Below are positions 32,600-32,733 of a stretch of 38,378 nt of DNA, piece after piece; position 1 is the stretch's first letter, and every line of letters starts with the position of its first letter. The notes beneath the pieces are model-generated. The model was not told where the DNA came from, did not search any database, and saw only the letters and a list, made by a program, of their open reading frames with translations. Made by a program: the position numbers and the translations under genes. The stretch comes from Minisyncoccota bacterium (GTDB taxonomy: Bacteria > Patescibacteriota > Minisyncoccia > Phycocordibacterales > CAJQIN01), in the NCBI GenBank assembly GCA_022763265.1, contig JALEGR010000043.1, positions 1 to 38,378 on the forward strand. Direction: 5' to 3'.

Positions 32600-32733
32600 T
32601 GGAGCCGGAGGGAGTCGAACCCTCGTTTCGGTCTGGGAGCAAATCACAGATGGTTTTTGCTTGGGCATTTTCCATCTTGGGCTACCACACCCTAGTGAGT
32701 TTCATATCCAGCCGGTCGCTGCCGTTCGGCCCC
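32600..32733 (-). ncRNA. ssrA: tmRNA-like RNA (tRNA-like domain with G3:U70), unusually short (134 nt)
   Basis: On the minus strand, 5' GGGGCCG pairs with 3' CGGCTCC-A, placing a G:U at pair 3:70. The T-arm is GAGGG-TTCGACT-CCCTC. CGGCTGG near the 5' end pairs with CCAGACCG before the T-arm, giving a P2-like helix. A TATTAT/TATAAA -10 lies just upstream and a terminator just downstream. It does not fold as a cloverleaf tRNA. Confidence 0.5.

Follow-up and report, generated by a model that had tools for sequence, protein, structure and literature searches.

On the minus strand of contig JALEGR010000043.1, from a Minisyncoccota bacterium, positions 32733..32600 encode an RNA of 134 nucleotides (nt) with the tRNA-like domain (TLD) of a transfer-messenger RNA (tmRNA); its full sequence is GGGGCCGAACGGCAGCGACCGGCUGGAUAUGAAACUCACUAGGGUGUGGUAGCCCAAGAUGGAAAAUGCCCAAGCAAAAACCAUCUGUGAUUUGCUCCCAGACCGAAACGAGGGUUCGACUCCCUCCGGCUCCA. 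The whole stretch of 38,378 nt that was analysed is called the window, and the RNA is called the window RNA. The genes that surround it indicate a low-GC Patescibacteria chromosome. With moderate confidence we read the locus as a functional gene for a miniature tmRNA devoid of a coding sequence (CDS), in effect a "half tmRNA". The parts of the gene are listed here in the order of transcription, with the evidence for each; L150 is the locus of the closest relative and R1 the covariance model of the RNA family, both described below.

32736..32746, minus strand: AT-rich, -10-like block TATTATATAAA, 2-3 nt upstream of G1 (ATATATAAAAA in ortholog L150)
32600..32733, minus strand: whole mini-tmRNA gene, 134 nt, CCA not encoded (sequence, Rfam family RF00023, covariance model R1, pattern scan)
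32727..32733, minus strand: 5' strand of the acceptor stem, GGGGCCG, paired with 32601-32607; G3:U70; pairs 5:68 and 6:67 covary in the family
32715..32726, minus strand: D-loop analogue AACGGCAGCGAC, D stem absent (aligned with the RF00023 consensus GAucuGGaUUCGAC)
32708..32714, minus strand: 5' strand of helix P2a, paired with 32629-32636 with a bulged A; CCGGCUG G / CCAG-A-CCG (minimum-free-energy, MFE, fold)
32695..32702, minus strand: 5' strand of helix P2b, AAAcUCAC, 7 base pairs (bp) with 32641-32647 (MFE fold; UUCUCU/AGAGAA equivalent in ortholog L150)
32679..32692, minus strand: hairpin HP1, GGGU-GUGGUA-GCCC, at the position of pseudoknot PK1 (4/4 pairs covary)
32648..32677, minus strand: hairpin HP2, stem of 5-6 bp, (A)GAUGG/CCAUC(U) (5/5 stem pairs covary)
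32654-32671, minus strand: loop of HP2, AAAAUGCCCAAGCAAAAA, 18 nt (MFE fold; consensus order A-run, GCN, A-rich stretch)
32664..32666, minus strand: GCC, a resume-codon-like triplet behind the A-run, 12 nt past HP1
32608..32624, minus strand: T-arm GAGGG-UUCGACU-CCCUC (sequence; compensatory GAGAG/CUCUC in the ortholog)
32600..32607, minus strand: 3' strand of the acceptor stem, CGGCUCC, and discriminator A73 at 32600 (sequence)
32567..32597, minus strand: intrinsic terminator GCACCAGCUU-AAAA-GCUGGUGC with a U-run (terminator scan; stem-loop 32597-32576 with 9 pairs, 6 of them G-C)

An earlier note on this DNA, made from the letters alone, had described a tmRNA-like gene with an intact TLD and almost no body. 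The TLD is as it had claimed: a 7-bp acceptor stem with G3:U70 (GGGGCCG, 32733-32727, against CGGCUCC, 32607-32601), a canonical T-arm (32624-32608) and a P2-like helix (32714-32708 with 32636-32629). The last of these, P2a, has 7 bp in the window RNA, of which 4 are modelled in the family alignment, and all 4 covary. Between acceptor stem and P2a lies the D-loop analogue, and such an analogue without a D stem is the layout specific to tmRNA. Directly after A73 the DNA reads UUG instead of CCA, again as the note had it, and from this follows that CCA must be added after transcription; a gene for the CCA-adding enzyme lies within the window (37281-38294). The downstream terminator is recovered by the terminator scan at 32597-32576 with its T-run. 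Of the -10 box, the AT-rich block is present and conserved in the ortholog, while the sigma-70 scan at the block finds neither a full -35/-10 promoter nor a consensus -35; from its sequence and position the block may be the promoter of the mini-tmRNA gene.

The body of the RNA is short, and the four pseudoknots of standard tmRNA are missing, both as previously claimed. The approximately 70 nt between the P2 strands fold as P2b followed by two plain hairpins, HP1 and HP2. PK1-PK4 are absent from the window RNA, and inspection of the alignment reveals no covarying pseudoknot; a pseudoknot between the HP2 loop and its flanking sequence was considered and dropped, as the candidate pairings were found on inspection to be inconsistent among members. 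The HP1 loop of the window RNA, GUGGUA, is the consensus loop, and most of the 25 aligned sequences keep it.

Standard annotation does not report the gene. ARAGORN, whose use together with Rfam had been proposed in the earlier note, finds 0 genes in the 38-kb window, neither tRNA nor tmRNA, and the Rfam scan of the window gives nothing at gathering score. With permissive thresholds, RF00023 matches the window RNA at both ends and scores 34.8 bits, where the cut-off is 47 (E 1.8e-12 when the local stretch is searched); the alignment covers only model positions 1-18 and 345-374, so that 90 nt replace 326. Within Rfam's tRNA clan the best family for the window RNA is RF00023 and not RF02544. When the TLD pattern is searched with a body of 60-120 nt, there is 1 match in the window and 0 in 100 shuffles. 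On its own covariance model R1, the window RNA scores 109.1 bits, while ordinary tRNAs in the fetched loci score at most about 30. Judged by the best Rfam family, the lack of a tRNA call by ARAGORN and the gap in R1 score, the window RNA is closer to tmRNA than to tRNA.

To see how the structure is maintained, consider the family to which the RNA belongs. The family was collected with a TLD pattern that fixed G1-G4, the core of the D-analogue, the T-loop and YTCCA, and left P2a, HP1 and HP2 unconstrained. This pattern matches 32 loci in GTDB species genomes, 4 viral contigs and 112 metagenome contigs, and when matches made up of a chance 5' end plus a tRNA-Ala are removed, 140 remain. The hosts are Patescibacteria (Saccharibacteria, WWE3, Berkelbacteria and Staskawiczbacteria), Chloroflexota (mainly Anaerolineae), a few other phyla and phage-like contigs. 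R1 was built from the alignment of the 25 members closest to the window RNA, and it recovers 134 instances with scores from about 50 bits upwards, corresponding to about 102 distinct sequences. Since the search pattern fixed G1-G4, the T-loop and YTCCA, the conservation of G3:U70 is not independent evidence, with L150 and the RNA of mycobacteriophage DS6A as exceptions.

The helices tell more. The 25-member consensus has five of them (acceptor stem, P2a, HP1, HP2 and T-arm), and 93.5% of its paired cells are complementary, compared to 39-54% after a shift of the partners by 1-3 columns. Cells where both sides have changed number 142, against 40.7 +/- 5.0 in shuffles, and double compensatory changes occur at 18 of the 25 base pairs tested. 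In the three helices that the pattern left free, each of the 13 pairs (4/4 in P2a, 4/4 in HP1 and 5/5 in HP2) has at least one sequence with both partners changed.

No member of the family is shorter than a TLD-only RNA of 63 nt, GGGGAUGAAGGGUUUCGACUGGAAGAUAAUUUCAGGACGCGGGUUCGAUUCCCGCCAUCUCCA, found at L080:2166-2228 and L091:7798-7860; the RNA of DS6A is longer. Its parts are the acceptor stem, the D-analogue, a P2 of 7 bp that ends in a tetraloop, and the T-arm; CCA is encoded behind this 63-nt RNA, and a second tRNA-like sequence follows. A BLAST search of phages with this 63-nt relative returns mostly attP sites and genuine phage tmRNAs, and the same search with the window RNA returns only a match of the 3' end, to a permuted tmRNA of a crAss-like phage.

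The surroundings of the gene can be compared with those in relatives. The reference points are three genes of the window.

27586-29688: pnp
33068-33586, minus strand: LabA/NYN-domain gene, directly downstream of rpsO
33621-33887: rpsO

The window also encodes exonuclease III. The NYN protein next to rpsO is very widely conserved in Patescibacteria, with 7998 matches at E <= 1e-20, and its gene is present with or without a mini-tmRNA gene behind it. In the closest relative, L150, the NYN protein is 85% identical and the gene order is the same. Directly after its NYN gene lies an ortholog of the window RNA (L150:10562-10685, 124 nt, 66 bits on R1), so that the comparison of homologous loci that the earlier note had suggested yields an RNA at the same rpsO-NYN site, with its structure kept by compensation in all parts except HP1. 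Pairwise alignment shows that upstream AT-block and terminator are kept at the same place. The HP2 stem has changed from GAUGG/CCAUC to CACAG/CUGUG and the T stem from GAGGG/CCCUC to GAGAG/CUCUC, and the P2 strands, too, differ in compensatory fashion; HP1 is missing, with a gap of 11 nt in its place. Compensatory changes of this kind, as read from the two sequences, are the signature of selection on structure and not of decay.

These data bear on the idea that the locus is a functionless remnant of a standard ssrA, either a duplicate cut short or a pseudogene with an internal deletion, which the earlier note had offered as one of its readings. A score under the Rfam gathering threshold, a position next to an IS110-like mobile element and a sporadic occurrence among close relatives are what would be expected of such a remnant. 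It would not be expected to covary strongly in every helix, to preserve its HP2, P2 and T helices by compensatory change in an ortholog that has otherwise diverged heavily, to carry its own conserved AT-block and terminator, or to share one architecture with more than 100 distinct sequences across phyla. The remnant reading is thus strongly disfavoured, to the point of being barely credible.

The age of the gene at this site appears to be low. Relatives with NYN identities of 79, 76, 70 and 68% have no such RNA gene at the locus, also when the search is run with filters off, and in two of the four an FMN-reductase gene occupies the site. From this lack in relatives with 68-79% NYN identity it follows that the gene arrived recently in the lineage, at an intergenic site between the rpsO-NYN genes and pnp whose content varies. 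The syntenic loci of the relatives did not yield a standard tmRNA either.

Other sequences lie close to the gene. A hydrophobic open reading frame (ORF) of 91 amino acids (32737-33012, minus strand) ends 4 nt before the start of the RNA, with its stop codon overlapping the AT-rich block. It has no Pfam match and no homolog in any fetched locus, and in L150 only 39 nt (10523-10561) separate NYN and RNA; on these grounds it is probably not a real gene and not relevant here. On the plus strand, an IS110-like recombinase ORF of 534 amino acids (30516-32120) matches Transposase_20 (E 1.3e-8) and DEDD_Tnp_IS110 (E 1e-5), and its GC content is 46% against a background of 36%. It is flanked on both sides (29700-32520) by arrays of a repeated module, which consists of a conserved leader, a hairpin, e.g., ACCCACAAAGGACTGAAAGGTTCTTTGTGGG, and a conserved trailer. 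Two modules are upstream, spaced by 365 nt, and two downstream, spaced by 213 nt, and among them is a direct repeat of 101 nt (29845-29945 and 32322-32422, 83% identity). The modules could be guide units resembling bridge RNA or att-type repeats. A GOLLD match near the element, at 23 bits against a cut-off of 150, is probably noise. A link between the mini-tmRNA gene and the IS110-like element was considered and ruled out, as L150 carries the RNA without the element. Further away, the UvrD/PcrA helicase gene (22059-25088, minus strand) is split by an intein (Intein_splicing at residues 251-614, E 4.7e-12, plus a Hint match), and its product has 1009 amino acids compared to 648 in L150.

The next question is whether the RNA encodes a tag. 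The earlier note had proposed the peptide A-Q-D-G-K-C-P-S-K-N-H-L, and the corresponding frame, from GCC after GUA to UGA, does exist in the sequence, but it is not conserved: 38 of 54 members have an in-frame stop after GUA, and the start, which lies inside HP1, is lost in the ortholog. The other two frames have stops in 26/54 and 27/54 members, and shuffles give 29.4 +/- 3.3, so that the enrichment of stops after GUA is weak and far below the 100% required of a working tag frame. The tag peptides predicted from the GUA frame are mutually unrelated across the family and lack the usual hydrophobic C-terminus. In the 25-member alignment no stop codon, in any frame, is universal to all members, and ARAGORN called only 2 of the mini genes as tmRNA, both with implausible-looking tags. 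The window RNA is therefore CDS-less in the sense of the tmRNA database. The idea that a GGUAG motif supplies a conserved stop, or the triplet at -1 together with the resume codon, was also tried; its statistics were weak, and it was superseded by the site described next.

This site is the A-run with GCN in the loop of HP2. In 25/25 HP1-type members, 12-13 nt separate HP1 from the first GCN in the loop of HP2. In 22 of the 25, the first triplet at the alignment anchor is GCC, GCG, GCU, GUG, GUC or GGC, and in the remaining 3 a GCN is situated 1 nt upstream of the anchor. In the RF00023 consensus, the 3' strand of PK1 is followed by AAAAAAUAAuU (11 nt) and then by GCaAAC at the resume site. Because the spacing from HP1 to GCN and the A-run resemble this resume site, HP1 is read as a stand-in for PK1. 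By the same resemblance of spacing and A-run, GCC at 32666-32664 is a better candidate for a resume codon than the GCC that follows GUA. The HP2 loop may accordingly be read as an A-run, a resume codon and about 3 codons of a former tag frame, closed by a hairpin. From GCN the frame is free of stops to the 3' end in 18/25 members, among them the window RNA, which would read AQAKTICDLLPDRNEGSTPSGS.

Consider now the possibility that the window RNA is a true minimised ssrA, which serves as the sole tmRNA of the cell and releases the ribosome through a short working frame without adding the canonical degradation tag. The frame would be GUA/GCC-CAA-GAU-GGA-AAA-UGC-CCA-AGC-AAA-AAC-CAU-CUG-UGA. The modest excess of stops after GUA (38/54 against 26/54, 27/54 and the shuffles) fits with this, as does the triplet after GUA, which, like resume codons, is usually G-initial (GGN or GCN). 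Furthermore, the tmRNA database gives the mini form as the tmRNA of a WWE3 relative, and tags of 2 amino acids exist in Fermentibacterota (PMC11915505). However, about 30% of the members are stop-free in the GUA frame, the predicted peptides are unrelated and miss the hydrophobic C-terminus, and the GCC that would act as resume codon falls within the 3' strand of HP1, where it is paired. The ortholog in L150 has lost HP1 and with it GUA and GCC through an indel of 11 nt, which is not a multiple of 3, and a sole ssrA is unlikely to be as recent as the gap in the relatives with 68-79% NYN identity requires. A minimised ssrA with a working frame is therefore improbable. The earlier note had suggested a minimised ssrA and a TLD-only RNA among its readings; both are supported in part, as the data favour a form between the two, a probably functional tmRNA-like RNA that has the TLD, an H2-like rod and a resume-codon region and is devoid of pseudoknots, conserved stop codon and tag.

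The genomic contexts of the family in other lineages differ between subfamilies. In the Saccharibacteria/WWE3 subfamily, 5 loci (L019, L043, L070, L105 and L109) have the gene on the strand of alaS and 0.3-1.7 kb upstream of it, and ftsK is upstream on the opposite strand in L019 and L043, as well as in L087 and L122, so that in several species the gene lies between ftsK and alaS. This gene order is conserved and connects the RNA with alanyl-tRNA synthetase (AlaRS), the enzyme that presumably charges it. The HP1-type members in the candidate phyla radiation (CPR) occur among housekeeping genes (such as uvrA, uvrC and a TrmB-family regulator), and the site differs from lineage to lineage. Genes of the Chloroflexota type either head dense tRNA arrays on their own strand or lie within them, with up to 10 tRNAs in 1.1 kb (L002, L014, L027, L057, L063, L106, L107, L138 and L142); in Anaerolineales, ordinary metabolic genes lie upstream of the mini-tmRNA gene, and just downstream of some other Chloroflexota mini genes there are HNH endonuclease genes (L017, L031, L137, L146 and L147). 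One metagenome-assembled genome (MAG) of Chloroflexia, CAWKMN01, has two different mini genes, L007 and L009, on contigs of 1.7 Mb and 0.47 Mb. No neighbour gene is universal to the family: alaS, HNH endonucleases and tRNA arrays recur within subfamilies only.

Several of these contexts are also what one would expect if the RNA were a pure decoy, which only titrates SmpB, and perhaps AlaRS or EF-Tu, away from canonical tmRNA and thereby inhibits trans-translation. Such a role has been proposed for the TLD-only RNA of DS6A (Hudson et al. 2014, PMC4131195). According to Mao et al. (2009, RNA Biol 6:355), as cited there, a TLD-only molecule strongly inhibits E. coli tmRNA whether it can be charged or not, perhaps by titration of SmpB; an effect on canonical tmRNA in vivo is known only from this TLD-only construct of E. 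coli. The family includes TLD-only members of 63 nt (L080/L091) and 80 nt (DS6A), some members reside on phage contigs, others are beside HNH endonuclease genes or, in Chloroflexota, at or in dense tRNA arrays, and one MAG has two different mini genes. About 75-78% of the Patescibacteria and Chloroflexota genomes have standard tmRNA, so that many carriers probably have both. What a decoy does not account for is the size of the window RNA: SmpB titration needs the TLD only, and the approximately 70 extra nucleotides, with rod, HP1, HP2, the 12-13 nt spacer and GCN, point to further contacts. In addition, a chromosomal inhibitor of an important rescue system is hard to rationalise in a tiny CPR genome. 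We regard the pure decoy as the main rival, though an unlikely one. Given that the architecture of these additional 70 nt is conserved and the spacer in them fixed, a role beyond SmpB titration is favoured.

AlaRS charges any helix with G3:U70, and the anticodon is not needed. The window RNA could from this point of view be a tRNA-like carrier of alanine for a non-ribosomal process, such as cell-wall or lipid aminoacylation dependent on Ala-tRNA, or a tRNA mimic with another task unrelated to SmpB. The adjacency to alaS in one subfamily is in line with this, and so is the absence of smpB nearby in the tblastn search of the fetched loci with an approximate E. coli query. The D-loop analogue and the P2 junction, on the other hand, are those of a tmRNA TLD, i.e., of an SmpB platform, and not of a tRNA; A-run, GCN and spacer resemble the resume site of tmRNA, and no genes of Fem or MprF type were noted among the neighbours. 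An alanine carrier is even less probable than a minimised ssrA.

We now return to the CDS-less miniature tmRNA as the favoured reading. The TLD of tmRNA is the platform for SmpB and EF-Tu. Of the equipment with which tmRNA performs the first half of trans-translation, the mini RNA keeps the TLD with its acceptor stem of alanine type, a rod resembling H2, a hairpin at the position of PK1 and, displayed in a hairpin loop, an A-run with GCC. By analogy with established tmRNA biology, the RNA would be processed, receive its CCA and be charged by AlaRS through G3:U70. With SmpB bound to the TLD, it would be delivered by EF-Tu to the empty A site of ribosomes stalled on non-stop mRNAs, and the nascent chain would be transferred to the alanine of the mini RNA. 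Beyond this step a degradation tag could not be appended, and canonical termination would be impossible. The net effect would be either a handling of stalled ribosomes that is free of tags, which needs a non-canonical mode of release, or competition with canonical tmRNA.

Some observations weigh against this reading. When there is no stop codon, there is no evident route of release for a ribosome that has accepted the mini RNA. The HP2 loop of the ortholog in L150 (AUAAUCAACCUCGAAAAGA) is poorly conserved and GCN is absent from it, which weakens the resume-codon reading for this lineage. Because more distant relatives do not have the gene at the site, it is dispensable. The family was, moreover, gathered by a pattern that itself prescribed G1-G4, the T-loop and YTCCA. 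Finally, smpB, which the earlier note had suggested to look for, was not found when the window and more than 150 fetched loci, with flanks of at most 10 kb, were searched by tblastn with an approximate E. coli SmpB sequence.

More tentatively, it is possible that the window RNA represents a widespread and essentially undescribed class of "half tmRNA" with a distinct reaction on stalled ribosomes. No fewer than 100 distinct sequences would belong to the class, with lengths of 100-160 nt and occurrences in Patescibacteria, Chloroflexota and phage-like contigs; they would have retained TLD, helix 2, the hairpin at the PK1 position and the resume-codon region and given up stop codon and tag. Its reaction, if the suggestion is true, would be a tag-free or alanine-only rescue with non-canonical release, or a targeted block of the host's trans-translation that phages and mobile elements use. 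Should the RNA act in ribosome rescue, it defines the minimum of RNA that is required for this; should it block rescue, it is a natural inhibitor of trans-translation on phages and mobile DNA. In either case the presence of an A-run and GCN at canonical spacing, but no stop, raises the question of the fate of a ribosome that switches to a template without an exit. The tmRNA-SmpB system is treated as a near-universal and uniform bacterial system and as an antibiotic target. Neither ARAGORN nor Rfam at gathering score sees the family, so that it escapes genome annotation, and calls of "tmRNA absent" in CPR MAGs may be wrong. CDS-less tmRNAs have previously been noted in passing, as 9 database sequences and one phage RNA, and here they emerge as a sizeable and structurally conserved family.

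How the window RNA relates to known systems is best seen from the standard one-piece tmRNA (RF00023). An acceptor stem that carries G3:U70 and A73 is common to the two, as are D-loop analogue, T-arm and H2 helix, and the layout of the TLD is the same, with a GGUUCGAnUCC T-arm and helix 2 in place of an anticodon arm. In both, an A-rich run followed by GCN occurs at the distance that separates PK1 from the resume codon. The window RNA differs in that PK1-PK4, the conserved stop, H5 and the tag are all lacking, and in its length of 134 nt compared to about 350.

A dedicated description of mini or minimal tmRNA, or of tmRNA in CPR, was not found in the literature. Nawrocki, Petrov and Williams (2025, PMC11915505) have 9 unique "Standard, no CDS" sequences among 97,179 tmRNAs, with 3 instances in Patescibacteria, and their list includes 9FT-COMBO-53-11 sp001772805 of candidate division WWE3. 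These forms are given one sentence in that paper, in which the structure of the body and the distribution are not described. The 9FT-COMBO-53-11 sp001772805 genome is the source of one of our loci, L021 (MEUW01000021), which scores 65.9 bits with R1. Like the window RNA, the "Standard, no CDS" tmRNAs are one-piece molecules in Patescibacteria with a complete TLD and no recognisable tag frame. The window RNA belongs to a different subfamily than the WWE3 form, characterised by HP1 with its GUGGUA loop and by an HP2 loop with A-run and GCC, and its context is rpsO-NYN instead of FtsK-alaS. According to a supplementary table of the same work, standard tmRNA is present in 5252/6765 Patescibacteria and 2417/3273 Chloroflexota genomes. 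Because most genomes in the two phyla have standard tmRNA, the mini form is not their usual tmRNA, and from the phylum-wide counts many carriers of the mini form probably have a standard tmRNA gene as well.

Reduced forms also occur in organelles. Mitochondrial tmRNA (RF02544; jakobids and oomycetes) and plastid forms of about 65 bp in Mallomonadaceae are conserved, apparently have no tag frame and co-occur with SmpB, and the plastid forms are mentioned along with a similar form in DS6A that inhibits tmRNA in E. coli (PMC11915505). Reduction and the apparent loss of the tag frame are thus shared with the window RNA, whereas mitochondrial tmRNA is organellar and usually a permuted two-piece molecule, and the window RNA is bacterial and in one piece.

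The RNA of DS6A, finally, has been characterised as "little more than the TLD" (Hudson et al. 2014, PMC4131195). We located it in JN698994 (L159) at 28478-28557, as 80 nt in the gp33-gp34 intergenic region, where the GenBank record has no annotation. R1 matches it with 46.2 bits over acceptor stem, D-analogue, P2 and T-arm. In common with the window RNA it has a tmRNA-type TLD with G3:U70, no tag and a length far below that of tmRNA. The window RNA is about 70 nt longer, and these nucleotides contain a conserved rod, HP1 and a resume-like loop; furthermore, the DS6A RNA is phage-borne, whereas the window gene is chromosomal in Patescibacteria and has an ortholog in a relative. The body with HP1 and HP2 is in this comparison a new variant of the barely described CDS-less tmRNA, and the family to which it belongs is much larger than the literature records.

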